Below are positions 13,781-62,340 of a stretch of DNA of 64,000 nt, piece after piece. The DNA is taken from assembly GCF_006345805.1 (NCBI RefSeq), contig NC_042999.1, positions 60,884,001-60,948,000 of the forward strand, read 5' to 3'. Origin of the DNA: Octopus sinensis. Taxonomy: Eukaryota. Each line of letters starts with the position of its first letter. The stretch's first letter is position 1. The position numbers and the translations under genes were made by a program. The notes beneath the pieces are model-generated. The model had not been told where the DNA came from and did not search any database. It worked only from the letters and a program-made list of their open reading frames with translations.

Positions 13781-13968
13781 ATTATAATTTAGGGTATCTA
13801 AGAGATACCTCCAAGCAGGAAATAGCAGCCAAAACTTGACTCTAAAACCACATTAAAACTTCATACAACGTCAGGTGCTGTATGAACATCCAATGTGGTT
13901 TTAGAGTCAAGTTTTGGCTGCTACTTCCAGCGTTGAAGTATCTCTTAGATGCCTAAATTTTAATTGTA
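13781..13968. repeat. Palindromic (MITE-like or inverted pLTR) element with about 85-bp arms
   Basis: ATTTAGGGTATCTAAGAGATAC..GCAGCCAAAACTTGACTCTAAAACCACATT..TTCATACA versus TGTATGAA..AATGTGGTTTTAGAGTCAAGTTTTGGCTGC..GTATCTCTTAGATGCCTAAAT. Confidence 0.8.
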
Positions 13969-14051
13969 TATATATATAAAATTGGGACAAGAACGCAAAA
14001 CATCCAGATAGACGATACAAAGAAATCAAGGACAGGTCATTCGGAGTTTTT

Positions 14052-14130
14052 TCCTCAGTCGAGTTCCAGATTATCTTTGCAGTTTCGGCTGGTTATACTC
14101 AAGATTGCTCCAATCTGGCTATCCCCAAGG
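14052..14130 (-). ncRNA. Candidate rearranged (non-circularly permuted) hammerhead ribozyme, degenerate 5'-truncated copy
   Basis: GGAUA-G-CCAGAUU-GGA-GCAAU-C-UUGAGU-AUAAC-CAGCC-GAA-ACUGC-AAAGAU-AAUCUGG-A-ACUCGA-CUGAGGA. Homologous to 44125-44266 with compensatory changes; lies in an insert at about 13978-14235. Confidence 0.65.
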
Positions 14131-14231
14131 GAAAACTAAGATAACTTCTCCACTGGACTTTCTACCTTTCTACCCTTTACGGATTCTCTTTTGGACATTT
14201 ACCCTCCACCTGCACCTCTCCTACCTGTGTA

Positions 14232-19233: not shown

Positions 19234-20858
19234 GTTGCGGCCAAAATGTTCAGAACGGCATTGTTTTCGTCAGAAAAGTAAGTATAAGTTTTTATCATAG
19301 TGATTTTCTATTCTATAATTTTCACAGACAATAAATACAATATTAATTGTTATTGTCTGAAATTTTTGTGTAATTTGAGAGGATAATACAAAAGTTATGG
19401 ATGATTTAGTGATTTACTGCAAAACCCATGGCGGCCAAAATGATCAGAACGGTTTAAAAAATAACAAAATAATCAAAAATGACAGAGAATACTGGAATTA
19501 TTTAATATTTAGTGTGAAACCCTTTAGCTTCAATCACACTCTGACATCTTCGACTGCATGAGGAAATTAAATTTTCAATTTCTTGCTGGGTGATCTTATT
19601 CCATTCTTCCTGAAGGGCATTCCATAATTGCTCAGTTGTTTTAGGATTTCTGGCTTTCGAACGTTCTCCTAGAATATTCCATACATTTTCAATAGGATTG
19701 AGATCTGGGCTTTGAGCAGGCCAATCCATAACAATAACCTTTTCAGCCTTGAGGAAGTTCATGACCACCTTAGCCTTGTGACATGGGGCATTGTCCTGCA
19801 GGAATATGGGTGGTCGCTTAGTTGAATTTCTCAGCACAGGCAAAACATGATCTTTTACAAGTTGTTTATAAACTTCTGCATTTACCTTTCCATGTAATCG
19901 CACCAAAGGGCCCACACCATCTCCAGATATCATCGCCCAAACGATGACACTTCCTCCACCGAATTTAACACTAGTCTTAAGGCATTTAGGCGACAATTTT
20001 TCACCTACTTTTCTACGAACGTACATTTTCCCATCTGAGCCAAATAACATAAACTTAGATTCATCACTGAAATGCACCGTTTGCTATTTTTCTTGAGACC
20101 ACAACACATGTTCGGTTGCAAAGGTAAGACGACACTTTTTATTCTTGGAGCTGATCAGTAACTTCACTGCAGATGCTCTTGCTTGTAGGTCATGTTCAAC
20201 TAAACGACGAGACACAGTTATTCGAGATAAAGTTTTCTTCAATACAATGCTCATTTTCCGAGAAACAGCAGCAGCAGTTTTAAATCTGTCCTTTTTAACC
20301 AACTTTACCATAGCACGATCTTCTCTCTTGGTCGTTTTTCTTGGCCTACGTGTAAACTTTCTTGCTTCACATGAACCACAATCATCCTAGACCTTAAGAA
20401 TACCGTGTACAACACTTTTTGACTTGTTAACAATTTTTGCAACAGATCCAATACTTAAATTATCCTTCCTTCGAAGCTTAATAATCTGCTGACGAATTGG
20501 TAACCGAGTAAGTGGCATTATATTAACAAAGTACACTGCAAATATTCTTACTAATGTTTAGTAAACGAACCGTCATGTAAACAAATTCAAAACATTAGAG
20601 TTCGCCGGTTAAATATACTAAAACACGGAGTAAAAGCAACCGTTCTGATCATTTTGGCCGCCATGGGTTTTGAAGTAAATCACTAAATCATCAATAACTT
20701 GTATTATGCCCTCAAATGACACCAAAATCTCAGGGAATAGCAAATGATATCGTCTGTATTGTCTGTGAAAATTATAGAATATAACACAACTTTGATAAAA
20801 AATTATATCTACTTTTCTGACGAAAACAATGCCGTTCTGAACATTTTGGCCGCCGTTG
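19232..20858 (-). mobile_element. Tc1-family DNA transposon with long IR/DR-type terminal inverted repeats
   Basis: TIRs of about 225 bp (19232-19455, 20637-20858), each with two direct repeats GGCCAAAATG(T/A)TCAGAACGG; TA flanks. Confidence 0.95.
19502..20518 (-). pseudogene. Tc1 DD34E transposase, one reading frame with two in-frame stops
   Basis: MPLTRLPIRQQII.. through FSDESKF, QDNAPCH and SPDLNPIENVW (34 residues between D and E). ORFs 20084-20311 and 19502-20077 are in frame with the ATG at 20518. Confidence 0.92.
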
Positions 20859-33530: not shown

Positions 33531-35065
33531 TGTTGTTGATTTTCCTCATAACTGTATTACTGGAACATGTTTTTGCATATGTTGGCTACTTCGTAATTTG
33601 AAATCGTATTGGTTTTCTAACATTCTTTACAAGATATATTTTTTATAGTACAACTGATATTTCGTAATACATATCTAGCTTTCTAATACGCTAACTTCTT
33701 CCCTGTATTTGTGGTAAATATAAATTTTTTGTGTGAGATTTTGCATGTTGTATTTTCTCAAACTTTCATTATTTTCCTGTCTATTGCTGCTAAATTTTTT
33801 ACTGTCTAATTGAAAATAATATTGCTATAACTCATAAGTGTGTCGGTCAGATTACTATACTTTTTGAGGGCGCTCAGCTCTGTAATAAGCATAAAATATA
33901 TACGTCTCTAATATTCTTTCTTATTTTTCGTTTCAATATGTGTGCTGCATACAGTCTAGATCATTAATTTTAAAGTACACCCTTGTGAGTGTTTGTATAA
34001 TTGTCTTATCTCAATTTATGTACCTAGTAAATCCTTATAGTTTTAAGCAATACTTTTTACATATGATCTGCAGTAGACAACTTGAATACATCTATATAGC
34101 AAGGTGGTTATTTCCATTATCATAGCATTTTTGCTAGTCTACATTTCTGTAAACATATTGGATGAATTTCTCATCATAAAATACAAAAGGTTTGGATAGG
34201 TTTTAGAAAGACCTTTTCTTGTTCTGTGACTGTAAAATTGGTGTCATTTACTCATTACATTGTATGTAGCTATGTAGGTTATTCCTAACCACACCATTGT
34301 AGTTATAACTAATATGTCTGCGATCACATGTGGGAAGCTGCTAAAAGACTTTCGTATACAATCAAGGCTATTTCCCAGAGAATTCGTTCTCTTGCAGTTC
34401 TCGCTTATGTCTTCCCTAATCGATAACTGATCTGTACAGCCAGGTGATCTTTTTCAATATCCTATTTGCTTTTTCGAGAGTGGCTTTAATGTTTGTCTTT
34501 GTTTTGTTTTTTTTTGTTTTTTTTTTGTGTGTGGCTGTGTCTATATCTTCACTGTGAATTAGTTGCGCTTAAAAAATGCTAGGTTTTAGAATAAGTTATA
34601 AAACCACTATGTTGATTACTAATTCCTTTTCCTGATAACATCATGGCAACATAATTTCATAATCGAAATATATTCTCGGAGAAAATATAAAACAATTGTT
34701 GACGTTTATCATACTGACACCTCTTTAAAGTATGTCAAAACACTGGCTGTCACAAAGCCTCTTGTACTAAAGAATTGGGAGTCGTGTGAGTGTACATTTA
34801 TAATAAAGAATGAAATATTTTCCTGTGAAGAAACACAACAGCGATTAGCATAGTCACGTCGGAATCTGCCGAAATGTATTAAAATTAAGCATGCGATGAT
34901 CGTTGTAATTCTCGATGTTCACTTTGCAAATCACTATTATATAAGTATATGTACGTATATATATATAACGGGAAGCTTTATGAAAATAGACAAAAGACGA
35001 AGGCAGGTGGAAAACAAACAAACAATTGTATTAGTATGGCGCTCAGGAAATATAAATAAAACAAG

Positions 35066-35103
35066 TCTTTAACGTTTCGAGCCTACGCTCTTCAACAGAA
35101 AGA
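35066..35103 (-). ncRNA. Minimal hammerhead motif of the PLE 3' pLTR
   Basis: UCUUU-CUGUUGA-A-GAGC GUAG GCUC-GAA-ACGU-U-AAAGA; perfect 5-bp stem I, palindromic ACGU stem III, A6U core variant. Confidence 0.75.
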
Positions 35104-35272
35104 TACACAGAGAGAAAAAAAACACAGAAAGAAGGAGAGAAAAAAAATGCGTGCAGTAACTAACGAATCAACATGGCGATCTGATTTCGGCCAGAGGTCA
35201 AAGATCAAACATGAGACGCGAGAGCGAAATAAGGGGAGATAATAGGGTTGATAATAGGGTTGAATGACCAGC

Positions 35273-35615
35273 TATTAGTGCGTAGGAGGGGTCTGGACGT
35301 GTGTATGTATAGGGTTGGTGTATGTATTAGTATGTATTAGTATGTATAAGGGTGTGTGTGTGTGTGTGTATGAGAGAGTATTAGTGCGTAGGATAGGTCT
35401 GGACGTGCGTATGTATGGGGTTGGTGTATGTATTAGTATGTATTTTTATGTATTAGTACGTATTAGTATGTATAAGTGTGTGTGTGTGTGTATGAGAGAG
35501 TATAAGTGCGTATGAGGGGTCTGGACGTGTGTATGTATAGGGTTGGTGTATGTATTAGTATGTATTAGTATGTATTAGTACGTATTAGTATGTATTAGTT
35601 GGTGTATGTATTAGT
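35273..35615. repeat. Three about 110-120-bp tandem repeats in the PLE 3' region
   Basis: Unit AGTGCGTAGGA..GTCTGGACGTG.GTATGTAT.GGGTTGGTG(TATGTATTAG)n. Confidence 0.85.
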
Positions 35616-38600
35616 ATGGCACATCATATATGATGTGATGTGTAAAGTCGTGCGGTGTAGTGAGGAGAAGAGGAGGGGAGAAGAGAGGGGAAGGGGAGGG
35701 AAGAAGAGGGGGAGGAGAGGAGGGGGAGGGGGAGGGGGAGGAGGAGGGGAGGAATGAGGAAAGAGGGAGAGGGGGAGAGAGAAGGGGAGTGAGGGAGCAG
35801 AGGGAAGAGGGAAGGAGGGAGGGAGAAAGAGGGAAGAAGGGAAGGGGAGTAGGGGTGAAAGGGTGAAGGACTGAAGAAGTAGGGGTCGGGGGGGAAGGAT
35901 AGGTGAGGAGGGGGGAGAGGGGGTTAGATGAGGAGGGGGGAGAGTTGAGACCAAATGGCGTATAAGAGCGAAGAGAGAAGATTAATTCCTGTTCACGGCG
36001 CAAACGGGAATCCGGATGGCCTCTGTGTAAGGACAAACCGAACACAGATAGGTGTTGCAATGAGTGACCGGTGGAGCGGAAATGGCGTGAGACCGGTGTG
36101 TCGTTTGCAAGTTGGATGTCACGAAGGTGTTCCGCGAACCGGTCAGCCAAGCGGCGTCCCGTTTGTCCGATGTACAAGGAATTGCAGAGAGAGCAAGAGA
36201 TGCAATAGATAATATTGCTGGAGTTGCAGGTGAAGGAGTGGATGATGGGATAGGGTCGATGGTGGGTGCTAGTGAGGCGGGTGGTGTTGGAGAGGTAAGG
36301 GCAAGTGCGGCAAGGTGAGCGGGAGCAGGGGAACGAGCCGGGTTGGGAGGTAGGGTCAGGGAAGGAGCTATGGACCAAAAGGTCTCGAAGGTTGTGGGCT
36401 CGTTTGAAAGAGGGGAGGGGTCGGTTAGGGAAGAGGTGTGAAGTGGACGGGTCGGACTGGAGATGACGGAAAGCTCGAAGAATGGTGCGTTGGAGACGTA
36501 GGGTCGTGGGGTGGTAAGTGAGGGGAAAAGGGAGGCGGGAGACTACAGGGCGGGTTCGGGGAGAGAGAGCAGATACACGGTCCAAGGACCGTGCTCTGGC
36601 AAGGGCGGTGTGGATAGTAGTGAGGGGGTATCCACGTAGGGTGAAGCGGTGAGCCATACGTTGAGACTGAGTCTCAAAGTCATGGTCGTCACTACAGAGC
36701 CTACGTAGACGGAGGAATTGGGAATAGGGGATGGAAAGCTTGGTGTGTTCTGGGTGGGAGGAAGAGAAGTTGAGGTATGAGTGTGAGTCTGTGTGTTTGT
36801 AGTGAATGGAGGTGGTAAGAGTGGAGTGAAGAATGCTAACCGAAATGTCGAGGAAGGAGACAGAGGTGTTGGAGATAGTGGAAGTGAAGTGGAGGGCGGG
36901 ATGGAAAGATTGGACGAAAGAGAGGAAGGAATCTAGATGTTCACGGGAGAGTGAGGTGGCACCGATAATGTCGTCAATGTAACGACCATATAGTTCAGGA
37001 GTGGGACCAGTGAAATTAGAGAATATTTGGGCCTCAACATAGCCAACGAACAGGTTCGCATAGTTGGGGCCCATTCGCGTTCCCATGGCCACTCCCGAGA
37101 CCTGATGGTAGAACTCACCCGCGAACGAGAAGCAGTTCAGAGTAAGGACAAGTTCGGCCAGACGAATGAGTGGAGGTGTCAGGTACAGGGTTAGAGCGGA
37201 GGTCAAGAAAGTGTCGAAGGGCCTGCAGTCCTTCGTGGTGAGGGATAACAGTATAGAGGCTTTGGATGTCCATAGTAAAAAGGATTTTGGAGGAGCCGGG
37301 AGGAAATGAGAAAGAGTTGAAAAGCCGGAGAGCATGGTTGGTATCGTGGATGTGGGAGGGAAGAGATGCCACTAGGGGGGCAAGGATACGGTCGAGGTAT
37401 TTAGAGATGAGCTCCGTGGGGCAGTTACAGGCGGAGACGATGGGGCGGCCAGGGTTGTTCGGTTTGTGGATTTTGGGGAGGAAGTAAATGGTGGGGGTAC
37501 GTGGGGTTCGCACAATTAGGTTGGATGCGGTGCGGGGGAGACGGGAGGACGCGATGAGGTCGCGGACAGTAGAGGATACCGTCTGTTGGTAGCTACGTGT
37601 GGGGTTAGAGGGCAGAGGGGAATAGAAGGAGGTGTCATTGAGTTGGCGGAAAGCCTCGGCCCTATAGAGGTCCGCGCGCCACACCACTACAACTCCACCC
37701 TTGTCAGCCGGTTTGATGATAATGTCAGCGCGCCGTTGGAGGGAACGAAGAGCCAAGAGCTCAGCCGGGGAGATGTTGAGGCGGCGTTGGCGCCTGAAGA
37801 AGTTGAACCGCTCCAATGCACGCTGACAAGCGCCCGCGAAAAGATCCACTGCTAGGATCTTGCCAGGGGCAGGCGTCCACGGGGATGGTCGGCGGCCCAG
37901 GCCAGTGAAGCAGTCCTCTTCGTTGGGTGTGGGTGGCGTGTCGTGGTAATGCGCACCCAACCGGACACGGCGCACAAAGCTGTGGACATCAACTCGCGTC
38001 TGGAATTCCTTACAGGATGGAGTGAGGGGAATGAAACGCAGACCCCTACCAAGGACGGAGCGTTCAGCCGCAGAGAGGGGAAGATCGGGGGGAATGGTAA
38101 CAACAGACGGAAGTGGAGAAGGGGTGGCTGGAATAGAAGTAGGAGGGGTGGTAGGTCTCGTGGAGGTCTGAGGGGGTGGTTGGGGGGGCAGTAGGTTTAG
38201 GTGTAGGTGGATGGAGCCTATCGGGAGGGGAGAAGGGATTGTAGGGAGGGGCAGTGGGGTTAGGTGTGGGTGGATAGAGCCTATCGGGAGGGGAGAAGGG
38301 TGGTGGAGGAGTTGGGGTAGTGGCGTCGGGTAGGGTGGAATGGAAGAGTGATTGGAGTTTACGAAGTTTGGTATCAGAAAGAAATTGATGGAAGAGTTGA
38401 TTCAAATGGATAATGAAGCGTAGCGTGTTTGGAGCATAGAGAGGCGGCAGAGAGGAGAAGAAGGTGGAGAAAGCAGGAGGAAGAAGGCGGTTGATGGCAT
38501 GTAGTTTGGAGAGATTGGAGCGAATGGTGGCCCGCATAATGCGGTAAGATGTGGTGCGGAGTATGGGTAAGATGGAAGAATCCGAGTGGAGAGCAGGGTG

Positions 38601-38800
38601 GAAGTGGAGGCGGAAACCTTTAGGGATGAGTCGGTGATGTAGGCAGCGGCTTAGGAAAGAGACATGGCTAGAGAAGCGGGTTTTTTAAAAAAGAAGTAGA
38701 GAGAGATCAACGGACGGCTGAAGGCAATATACAGGAAAGAACGGAGATGATCCTTCAAACGGTGATGGAGGGTGAGGAGGTAGGACCTAGGATCCGGCAT
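35611..38800 (-). pseudogene. PLE polyprotein (reverse transcriptase, Cys-rich linker, GIY-YIG endonuclease), frameshifted
   Basis: PADKGG, LPKIHKPNNPGRPIVS, LFTMDIQSLYTVIP, GVAMGTRMGPNYANLF, RYIDD, CSRSPCRTC, IIYCISCSLCNSLYIGQTGR, PFGLN (near 35945). Split over ORFs 38651-38851, 38064-38537, 37115-37975 and 35611-37335. Confidence 0.93.
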
Positions 38801-39209
38801 GATGGGATAGCGAAAAAAAAACAAACGTTCGAAAAAACAAAAAAAAATCAAAAAACAAAAAATTATCGTATGAAAAAAAATAGAAAAAAAGGGGATAGCG
38901 AAAAAAGGGGAAAAAACAAACCTTCAAAAAAACAAAAAAATAATAATCGTATGAAAGAACTAGATAAGTAAGCGATAGGGGCAGAAAAGACGGGGCAAAT
39001 GGAAAAGGGAAAGAAAGAAGGGAAGCAGAGAGAGGGGGAGGCAAAAAAGGGGGGTGCAGGCAGAGGAAACAGAGTATGGACATCCAGAGAGGGAAGAAAG
39101 ACGGAAAGGAGAACAAAAATGCAGGAAAATATGGAAAGCATGAAATGAATGTAAAAAAAGTGGTAATATATGAGAAAATAAAAATACAACAATAATTATA
39201 TATATATAT

Positions 39210-39367
39210 CCCTTCCTTTTCCTATGTTTCTGACGAAGCACTCCGCTCGAAACGTTAAATCCTCCTACTTTCTTTCCTTTCCTGAGCGTCCAATAACACT
39301 CTATACTTGTTCCACGTCCTCGCGTTGTTGTGTTTTCTCTTTGTGTTTTCATGTTTGAATCAACTTT
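39210..39367 (+). mobile_element. Diverged pLTR-like segment with hammerhead motif (39226-39260), inverted relative to the adjacent PLE
   Basis: GUUU-CUGACGA-A-GCACUCCGCUC-GAA-ACGU-U-AAAU; shares CGAAACGTTAAA..TTCCTGAGCG..TTCCAC with the 3' pLTR. Confidence 0.7.
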
Positions 39368-43741: not shown

Positions 43742-44062
43742 GAGAGTGGGTGAGTGAGAGTGAAAGAGAGAGGCAAGAAGAGTAAAGCTTTCAGAGAATC
43801 TTTTGTTCATGCTTCGGATGACTATATTTCCTATTCTTTAAATTATTCCTACTGATTCGATTGTAAGATGCAGTTCGCTGATTCTCTCCCAACTGGACAG
43901 TGTTTACCACAATTCCCGCCCCTAAGTGAACTTGGATCCTAGTAGCTTACCAACTGGAGAACACAGACCGGTACCTATCAGTTTGGGTTACTCTTGATTT
44001 AAACTGTTCATTTTCTCTCCATCCCTTCTCTCTTTGTGTGTATATATATATAAATATATATA

Positions 44063-44480
44063 AAAGTACAAAATGGGACAAGAACGCAAAACATTCAAAT
44101 AGACGATACAAAAGACGGACGGGTCATTCGAAGCCTCTAATCTTCAGTCAAGAACCGGATCATCCTCGCAATTTCGGCTGATTAATCTTGAGATTGCTCC
44201 GATCTGGCCAGCCCTAAGGAAAAACTAAGCTACGAGCATTAGATATTTTGGAAAAAGGATCGAATGTATACGAAACAAGGACAGAAAAACGGACAATGTT
44301 ACACGAATATAAATACAATAAACAATAATAATAATAATAACAGGACAAAAACAACAGCCTTCTTTCGACTTTAGACAGTTCAACTTAGCTGGCGTATTTG
44401 AAAAATAATGCCTTACGGCAGACGAAAAGGTGGATGTTGTGGCGCTGGTCAGAAGCCGAAAGGCTATAGTTGACATAAAT
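44063..44480 (-). mobile_element. Non-coding PLE-like element in (TA)n carrying the rearranged hammerhead
   Basis: Homologous to 13978-14140 (TGGGACAAGAACGCAAAACAT..TAGACGATACAAA..GGTCATTCG); flanked by (TA)n; no credible ORF. Confidence 0.7.
44125..44266 (-). ncRNA. Candidate rearranged (non-circularly permuted) hammerhead ribozyme
   Basis: CAUUCGA..-GGCUG-G-CCAGAUC-GGA-GCAAU-C-UCAAGA-UUAAU-CAGCC-GAA-AUUGC-GAGGAU-GAUCCGG-U-UCUUGA-CUGAAGA-..UCGAAUG. Confidence 0.75.
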
Positions 44481-51543: not shown

Positions 51544-52385
51544 TACCCTTCACATTTTTCCTATCTGTCTCCGATGACAGAATATCCCATGCTTTGGGAT
51601 AACCCAGAAACAGTTGTAACTTTTTCCTATAGTAATTACGTACATGACAACAAATATTTGTCTTGCCTTAGCGTTTGTTGTTGTATTTAACAATAATATG
51701 TATATGTATATATATACATATACGACGGGCTTCTTTCAGTTTCCCTCCATCTAATCTGCTCAGAAGGCATTATAATAGAAGACACTTGCCCAAGGTGCCT
51801 TGCAATGTGACTGGACGGGGAACCATGTGGTTGGTTACAAGCTACTTACCACACAGTCACACCTGCACCCATATATATATATATATATAAATATATATTA
51901 ATAAATGAAATAAAACATATGCATATATATAAACATATATGTACGTACCTACCTCTACATGTACATATACACGCATATATGAGTACAGGACACTAAAAGG
52001 ACGTCGAACACAAAGAGAAAGGAAAACATAGACACAAACCAAAGGAACAGGACATTTTTTTAAAAACAACAAAAAATGGAGTACAGGACAATTGACACAA
52101 CGAAAAAACCCCTTCTTCAGTCGCTAAGGTTTCATCTACTCTACGTTTCGAAGGATAAAAGCGAGACGTATCTTCGACAAGAAACTTTCCTTCCTGCGAA
52201 AAGCAAATCAATTAAAATTCTGAGATCTTTTCGCAGAGGGGTAAAAAATGGTAAAAAAATGGTAAAAAAACAGGACACTAACGACAGTACAAAAATATAA
52301 ACAGTAAGAAAACAGTAAAAAAATATATATAACAGTAAAAGACAGGACAGGGAAAACAAGATAAGAAGGGCTGTATATATATATG

Positions 52386-52543: not shown

Positions 52544-52870
52544 GTGCAGGTGTGCCTGTGTGGTAAGTAGCTTGTAACCAACCACATGATTCCCCGTTCA
52601 GTCACACTGCAAGGCACCTTGGGCAAGTGTCTTCTATTATAAAGCCTTCTGAGCAGATTAGGTGGAGGGAACTGAAAGAAGCCCGTCGTATATGTATATA
52701 TATATATATATACATATACATATTGTTGCTAAAGAGAAAACAAACGCTAAGGCAAGACAAATATTTGTTGTCATGTACGTAATTACTATAGGAAAAAGTT
52801 ACAACTGTTTCTGGGTTATCCCAAAGCATGGGATATTCTGTCATCGGAGACAGATAGGGAAAATGTGAAG

Positions 52871-61345: not shown

Positions 61346-62160
61346 GTAAAGCAAAGAGCGCGATTCGATTGTAAGTTATTTTATTAGTTGAACGATATTT
61401 CAACAGTACGTCTGTCTTTGTCAAGTGGAAAATAAGAAGTGATAAAAATTCAAACTTATAGAAATTTAAACGTAAAGTATGAACGAGAGCAACCAGCGTC
61501 CACACGTTGATAGAATGATATCACCAATTTTTAAGTTACAATTGTATAAAAGGCGAAAAGAAAAAGACAGAAAAAACAGAAAACAGATGACGACAGAAAA
61601 AAGGAAAGGAAAAGAGAGAAAGAAGAATATTTGATCAAACAGTTTTGTATAAATTTGATGATATTCTCCTGCCATCTTATTCCTTCCTCCAGGGCGTAAT
61701 GTTAATATCCCACAAACATATTTCTCCTCATAGATTCTGAGGAGTGAAAATTAAGCAGATTCAGAATATTTTCTGAGAATATGTACTTTCAAGTCTTCTT
61801 CAAAATTGCAGCCGCTTGAAATGAAATATTCAGCAAGTTCTGTCGAACTACTGTTATTGTGCCTGACGTCGAATCTGTACCCATTAAACCTTTTGTTTAA
61901 TTGTTCTGTTGTACAACCAACATAAATTAAATTGTGTTTCATGCATTCTGCAGCGTACACCAAATGGGAATCTTTGCATGTTCCACCTTCTGTATAAATC
62001 ATAACATTTCTGTTATGATTTCTGAAGGAATTCACTTCACTCATGTTGTTGCACAATGAACAGGGCTTGCCTCTCTTACAGTTGTTCTTTAAGAACTTGC
62101 TGAAAATTTCGCTTTTGTTTTTATGTTTTCGTTTCTCATTGTGTTCAGTTTTTTTTACGT
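61345..62160 (-). mobile_element. 5'-truncated Penelope-like element (GIY-YIG end plus 3' pLTR with variant hammerhead-like motif at 61391-61427)
   Basis: CKRGKPCSLC..CKDSHLVYAAECMKHNLIYVGCTTEQLNKRFNG; CUUGACAAAG-ACAG ACGUA CUGU-UGAAAUAUCGU. Confidence 0.8.
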
Positions 62161-62180
62161 CCTGTACTCATATATGCATG

Positions 62181-62224
<44 letters not shown>

Positions 62225-62340
62225 GTAGGTCTTGTACATATATGTATGAATATATGCATATATTTATATATTATTTATATTATTATATGATCAAACGCCA
62301 CGCATTCTTTTCCAAGTAAGTGTATATATATATATAATAT

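Follow-up and report, generated by a model that had tools for sequence, protein, structure and literature searches.

A predicted split hammerhead ribozyme in the tails of (TA)n-inserting, likely Naiad-type repeats of Octopus sinensis

Does the tail of a dispersed octopus repeat fold into a self-cleaving ribozyme, and if it does, which kind of hammerhead is it? The question is raised by a 5'-truncated repeat copy (family A) with (TA)n flanks on both sides, found on the minus strand at 44061-44474 of a 64,000-nucleotide stretch of Octopus sinensis DNA (contig NC_042999.1, positions 60,884,001 to 60,948,000; hereafter the window, to which all coordinates refer) and having the extent 44035-44474 in common with genome copies. 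At 44266-44125, its minus strand holds every letter of the hammerhead core together with helices I, II and III, arranged in the non-circular order S-G-C. Judging from the sequence, the motif is real, conserved and probably catalytic, and we consider it quite likely that this repeat tail folds into a self-cleaving hammerhead with a cut between 44192 and 44191, its carrier likely being a non-autonomous Penelope-like element (PLE) of the Naiad type. The motif is likely the ribozyme that the Naiad group was thought to lack, and the predicted hammerhead is best called a split-SGC variant.

Architecture of the motif in the window

Read 5' to 3' along the minus strand from 44266 to 44125, the motif starts with the 5' strand of a closing helix, P0 (44253-44266, with distal CAUUCGA at 44266-60 and proximal CUUUU at 44257-53), followed by a hairpin, H (44214-44251), abutting stem II, by the 5' strand of stem II, GGCUG (44209-44213, position 10.1 onward, detached from A9), and by the 5' strand of a further helix, X (CCAGAUC, 44201-44207), which would be the equivalent of the helix of the type-SGC stem I-stem II interaction. 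Block S comes next (44186-44197), consisting of the stem III strand GCAAU (44197-93), C17 (44192) and the stem I strand UCAAGA (44191-86), and after a linker, UUAAU, it is followed by block G (44168-44180) with the stem II strand CAGCC (44180-76), GAA (44175-73) and the stem III strand AUUGC (44172-68). The motif is completed by the 3' strand of X (GAUCCGG, 44155-44161), a split block C (44141-44153) with the stem I strand UCUUGA (44153-48) and CUGAAGA (44147-41), and the 3' strand of P0 (44125-44138, UCGAAUG distal), which begins 2 nt after A9, as P0 runs on inward (CUUUU/AGAGG) and ends 2 nt short of it. All the helices named by a sequence-only reading of this DNA (II, X, III, I and the closing helix) sit where it had put them, and its cut was placed correctly, C17 being 44192. 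Helix X in this copy has 7 bp with one A.C mismatch, and the plus strand at 44125-44266 was found to have no CUGAnGA.

The core is that of a hammerhead (C3-U4-G5-A6-N7-G8-A9, G12-A13-A14, A15.1-U16.1 and H17), and what sets the motif apart is that the stem II strand is split off from CUGAAGA, with the closing helix and the hairpin spanning the gap; in family A there are 0 bp directly after A9, and C3 is preceded by the stem II strand at a distance of 62 nt. The hairpin had been described as only partly preserved, which is right for the window copy, where it is damaged by private changes at 44247, 44245 and 44215, and this is why that copy fails the full-architecture descriptor. In the family A majority, the hairpin is whole (CCAAG/CUUGG) and appears in the minimum-free-energy (MFE) fold.

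A second motif of the same architecture, with other helix letters and zero-nucleotide junction linkers, belongs to another family (family B) and lies on the minus strand at 52108-52242. The common topology of the two, proposed earlier, is borne out by an S-G-C descriptor, which retrieves exactly these two places in the window (44125-44266 and 52108-52242), while 60 dinucleotide-shuffled windows gave no match with stems I and III of at least 5 bp, one with at least 4 bp and no full architecture; chance complementarity is unlikely, as had been argued. When shuffling was confined to the 85 nt upstream of stem III, in 10 families, the real score was reached in 0-13 of 200 trials per family. The fold does not emerge from nested MFE folding of the two copies in the window, and the copy at 44125-44266 is unremarkable (z 0.02), which is expected because nested folding cannot represent crossing helices, of which there are three; for the family A majority, nested folding recovers P0, H and II.

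The order S-G-C is not the circular order C-G-S of hammerhead types I, II and III, on which the Rfam models are built. Comparison of the whole window with Rfam gave no hammerhead among the best 150 of 382 matches, all of them driven by microsatellites, and a local scan of the motif gave no hammerhead match at E<=10, with one chance match.

Conservation of the fold and genomic 5' ends

First-look genome candidates numbered 3301 for family A and 2333 for family B in the 2.72 Gb genome, in which both are dispersed repeats, and the best 40 candidates of family A, with the self-match set aside, agree at 95-97%. A single pattern running from GAAA to CUGAnGA has 9433 + 2226 genome matches (approx. 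11,700), and the reversed controls have 1 + 0. The claim that mainly the catalytic nucleotides are conserved between the two families is correct as far as the helix letters go, which differ, but the GAUGA linker and the GA before CUGA are common as well. Because one pattern with these letters retrieves both families, A and B are probably homologous. The sequence-only reading, which saw selection across deeply diverged families, slightly overstated their independence, while the rest of this claim held, as the fold is kept, covaries and recurs in a third family. This is family N, the motif of the octopus Naiad consensuses Naiad_Obim and Naiad_Ovul, which parses into the same split S-G-C fold with helix letters of its own and has 364 genome matches against 0 in the control. 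The junction linkers have zero length in B and N and measure 0-2 nt in the A-like families.

The check on family consensus sequences, which had been proposed earlier, was run on majorities taken from the 17 clusters of at least two copies, 82 single copies being left unparsed. Thirteen of the 17 majorities parse into all six helices; the other four are one deletion variant and three with damaged helices. Among A-like copies (n=28, selected to span subfamilies, with counts that ignore relatedness), 90% of cells are paired, against 21-51% in slid controls, and two-sided changes are seen in 14 of 44 pairs, including those of stem I (3/6), helix X (4/7), stem III (2/5) and stem II (1/5). The B-like copies (n=15, counted in the same way) have 93% of cells paired, and 6 of 36 pairs change on both sides. 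Stem II of the A-like copies is paired in 98.6% of cells over 28 sequences, its first pair being G-C in 28/28. All three stems around the core covary, with the variation of stem II lying mainly between families. The letters C11.1-G12-A13-A14-A15.1 are invariant in 28/28 A-like sequences, although most rows had been retrieved by a pattern containing them; more generally, the core letters belonged to the retrieval pattern, whereas U16.1-H17 did not. All four letters (A, U, C, G) occur at N7 among the subfamilies, and H17 varies too, with the core kept.

These pairings bear on whether the motif could be an ordinary type SGC, in which stem II would use the strand lying 3' of CUGAnGA (GGCU in A, behind an insert of 5 nt, and GGGG in B, behind one of 1 nt), leaving a peripheral role to the upstream strand. 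Of the 13 parsed cluster majorities, 12 offer a candidate of 3-4 bp for such a stem, as does family N, and block C would then be nearer to the published rule. However, the insert length shifts (1, 4, 5 or 6 nt), two G.U pairs are often needed, the downstream pairing has at most 4 bp and falls to 1 bp in one subfamily, and the same downstream strand has a longer pairing in P0 (up to 15 bp), while the upstream stem II is made of 5-6 Watson-Crick pairs in all three families, A, B and N. In the coral and Clytia-position records of the published Naiad supplement (PMC8557442), as far as they were inspected by eye, the letters following A9 lack complementarity to the stem II strand. We regard an ordinary type SGC as improbable.

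Where the genomic copies begin gives a hint of whether the putative split hammerhead also cuts in the animal: if the RNA is cleaved, copies reverse-transcribed from the 3' product should start at or just past the cut. A pattern situated entirely on the 3' side of the cut yielded 156 A-like copies, of which 41 begin at 0..+15, five at -10..-1 and five at -50..-11; three of the five at -10..-1 read TA joined to the first base past the cut, and the copies starting at the cut are, with one exception, single short copies. In the first 29 loci listed, a sample overlapping the 156-copy set, TA junctions lie after the cut in 26 and well before it in three. TA junctions exactly at the cut, compared with those two bases upstream at equal local letters, number 85 versus 14 among 100 listed, and the AUA triplet, which would blur this comparison, occurs in 1 of 77 intact copies. 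Minus-strand junctions number 550 at -20..+10 versus 123 at +16..+42, and since the two junction anchors account for 96 and 122 copies out of the 156 A-like ones, the junction density just past the cut is approx. seven times that further downstream. For family B, 24 of 28 loci start at or 3' of its own cut, and 3 of 32 start at +6. This pile-up of 5' ends just 3' of the predicted cut is indirect evidence for cleavage in vivo. Three 5' inversions (L047:994-1147, L163 and L210) have their breakpoints 4-8 nt after the predicted cut. Contigs guessed to derive from RNA have their highest depth over 44142-44189, which is also the most conserved part, and as they show no ends, they were given no weight.

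The same pile-up could come from a structured RNA signal that does not cleave, such as a reverse transcriptase (RT)-binding element or a decayed ribozyme, with the 5' ends marking an internal start site or an RT stop. Penelope and Chlamys-3 have a start site within the pseudo-long terminal repeat (pLTR) according to PMC8557442, and most copies of the octopus families do extend beyond the site. On the other side, variation at N7 and H17 contrasts with the retention of all catalytic letters and an NUH triplet, and the step in 5' ends stands at the hammerhead position in two families differing in sequence. A structural RT stop at stem I would be unlikely, because the partner strands have already been copied when RT arrives there. 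A non-cleaving signal is therefore an unlikely explanation, although one which we rate somewhat above an ordinary type SGC.

Carrier repeats and the Naiad elements

The unit to which the family A tail belongs measures approx. 850 bp and is likely a non-autonomous Penelope-like one, a carrier that the sequence-only reading had not named. Copies have a fixed 3' end approx. 100-250 nt past the core, terminate in (TA)n and are truncated to a variable extent at the 5' end; they are also found as tandem units of approx. 700-850 bp with one motif per unit, and sometimes with 5' inversions. Fixed 3' ends, 5' truncation, tandem units, inversions and (TA)n targets are given as Penelope-like traits in PMC8557442, and families A and B have all of them, as is expected of non-autonomous derivatives of such elements. 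The ORFs (open reading frames) listed for the A and B units include no recognisable RT or endonuclease, and in neither unit was the Naiad arrangement found, in which an N-terminal GIY-YIG and a C-terminal RT share one ORF. A B-like motif does lie 2.3 kb from one RT remnant, but unrelated repeats intervene. The families are called Naiad-type by their fold and are not filed as Naiads. Nor are they retrozymes of the non-LTR kind, which carry a type I hammerhead per tandem unit, as the one motif in each unit here is not of type I.

The tandem arrangement suggests one more possibility, that the active form is a dimer or a trans complex between two tandem units, as in the minimal hammerheads of Penelope, for which dimeric cleavage is said to have been reported by Lunse in 2017. 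Yet a single copy contains all six helices, closed within 142 nt, and taking blocks from neighbouring units would still leave stem II detached from A9, which makes such a complex very improbable, the least credible of the readings weighed here.

One link to Naiads is family N, whose motif lies 0.9-1.4 kb downstream of a C-terminal RT piece in 7 of the best 30 loci. A 48%-identical relative of this RT piece matches Pfam RVT_1 with E 1e-4, below the curated cut-off, while the short RT pieces themselves are not recognised by Pfam. Craig et al. 2021 (PMC8557442) report Naiads without canonical hammerheads and leave the fold unresolved, but flag eight Naiad families, Naiad_Ovul among them, with GAAA 35-50 nt on either side of CUGAnGA, and annotate 'HHR_core' and 'HHR_half_core' in the Naiad clade. 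We inspected the supplement of that paper by eye around CUGAnGA matches, covering part of the 54 Naiad records. Ten of the records covered end in the split order, each having helix letters of its own: Bfor (from a ctenophore, with a stem I of just 2 bp), the Clytia-position record, three from Acropora, two in part 12 and one in part 19 of the supplement, Obim and Ovul. In the Acropora Naiad, stem II is GGCUCC/GGAGCC and an 8-bp P0 begins directly after A9, while the Esco and Adux records look degenerate. Six nematode records (three Nbra, Hcon and two assigned by file position) have an intact type CSG at their 3' ends. The exact motifs of A and B were not found in the portion of the supplement searched, where line breaks may hide matches. 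Parts 16-18 (spider by position) show the S-G-C core order with other peripheral helices, possibly another variant. The 3' ends of bivalve Naiads in the same supplement carry motifs which resemble the twister consensus.

We think it fairly probable, though with less assurance than the fold itself, that the motif is a fourth, split opening of the non-circular ring of blocks and the active, ancestral ribozyme of the Naiad 3' tail, from ctenophores to octopuses, with the nematode CSG as its sister permutation.

Several results weigh against the split, Naiad-type ribozyme. Stem II does not adjoin CUGAnGA, a contiguity that PMC10085705 assumed to be required. The full descriptor is permissive, as some parse is obtained in 31-81 of 200 upstream shuffles. 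The covariation of A-like and B-like copies was counted regardless of relatedness, on A-like copies chosen by subfamily, and stem II has one two-sided change within A-like and none within B-like copies, its support being the differences between families. Approx. 70% of copies run past the cut, most truncated copies start 5-13 nt 3' of it, partly at TA-like microhomology, and the 5' ends of family N (11 loci) lie downstream of the cut in four, are ambiguous in two and lie upstream in five. As for the carrier, no A or B tail was contiguous with RT in 50 loci around the Naiad-like RT piece, and cephalopod Naiads are described as long inactive (PMC8557442, in part), while families A and B look young.

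Other elements of the window and genome include older, coreless fragments of families A and B (13967-14143 and 62114-62280) and oppositely oriented copies of a common SINE-like (short interspersed element) repeat at 51720-51860 and 52560-52700, flanking the family B copy. On the minus strand at 34960-39300 lies a Penelope-like element with a frameshifted RT-like ORF, a C-terminal GIY-YIG (Pfam E 0.003, below cut-off) and a CxxC linker, which we take to be Neptune-like; it has a minimal motif resembling a type I hammerhead near 35097-35070, in which C3 reads U, and an inverted copy on the plus strand at 39230. This element is a possible mobiliser of A and B, with whose units no DNA similarity was detected. 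An open frame at 19502-20083 (minus strand) resembles a transposase fragment, presumably of the Tc1/mariner kind. Elsewhere in the genome, ordinary type I hammerheads occur in several families (L030:2800 on the plus and L030:670 on the minus strand, L125, L179, L318; L133; L113), and a more divergent Naiad-like family has an open RT frame of 320 aa (L307:3435-4394, minus strand) with no S-G-C motif within 3.4 kb downstream.

Proposed mechanism and relation to known ribozymes

In the proposed fold, a four-way junction formed by the core, P0, hairpin H and stem II would take the place of the bond between A9 and 10.1. As in the standard fold of ordinary hammerheads, known from the hammerhead crystal structure, the A9.G12 pair would have stem II stacked on it; P0 and H would form a second stack, and stems I and II would be held together by helix X, as they are by the interaction helix of type SGC. 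The alternative stacking would be inactive and could explain partial cutting. In the window copy, with its core intact and hairpin H weakened, the ribozyme may cut poorly. Cutting of tandem or read-through transcripts would set the RNA 5' ends approx. 130-150 nt upstream of the fixed 3' end, and reverse transcription of the 3' product would give many short copies starting at the cut, while uncut or re-ligated templates would yield the longer and tandem copies, so that cleavage would be partial.

The closest relative is type SGC (HRIMA-1; Eckert, Friedrich, Weinberg, Weinberg 2023, PMC10085705), which has in common with the octopus motif the order S-G-C, a short linker between stems I and II, a helix joining the other strands of these stems (X in the octopus) and the full core letters. 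Unlike the octopus motif, it has an uninterrupted block C, with CUGAnGA contiguous with stem II and an interruption assumed to be impossible, whereas the octopus ring has its opening between A9 and 10.1, where P0 and H bridge it. The published examples, whose cleavage is slow (0.007-0.19 per min), come from metatranscriptomes only and from no genome of a known organism, while the present motif belongs to an animal retroelement with approx. 10^4 copies. Type CSG, with two metagenomic examples in that paper, has the same non-circular ring of blocks, but there block C is whole and no P0/H junction is present. An insertion between A9 and G10.1 which is compatible with cleavage is also seen in the plus-strand hammerhead of chrysanthemum chlorotic mottle viroid (CChMVd), with its extra A10 (PMC3705267, in part), although this is one nucleotide, and not a two-helix domain holding the RNA ends.

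With Naiads (PMC8557442), families A and B have in common (TA)n insertion, 5' truncation and tandem and inverted arrangements, and Naiad_Obim and Naiad_Ovul have the same fold at the 3' end; unlike them, A and B are non-coding, and beyond the fold no DNA homology to the Naiad RT loci was detected. Non-LTR retrozymes (bioRxiv 10.64898/2026.07.22.740005, in part) are similar in being non-autonomous tandem units of several hundred bp, derived from PLE tails, with one hammerhead each. These hammerheads, and the minimal ones of Penelope pLTRs, are of type I (C-G-S), and the type I descriptors used there would miss a split topology. It should be noted that the literature consulted, with subscription journals largely outside it, held no description of the split form or of permuted hammerheads in Naiads. 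The minimal type I hammerheads of Penelope pLTRs are said to go back to Cervera and de la Pena in 2014.

If the split hammerhead is true, it would overturn the published view that the CUGAnGA strand is inseparable from stem II, and with it the limit of six permutations for hammerheads, as well as the published statement that Naiads are without hammerheads, and the junction at A9/10.1 would be a new insertion point for ribozyme engineering. Together with CSG, the split-SGC form would provide a natural series for studying how permutations arise, and the four-way junction could act as a switch letting some transcripts escape cutting. The pile-up of 5' ends offers a direct handle on the role, unclear according to Craig et al., that ribozymes play in the retrotransposition of Penelope-like elements. 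Finally, non-circular hammerheads would be abundant in animal genomes, moving from rare metatranscriptomic finds to approx. 10^4 copies in a single animal genome and to several phyla.
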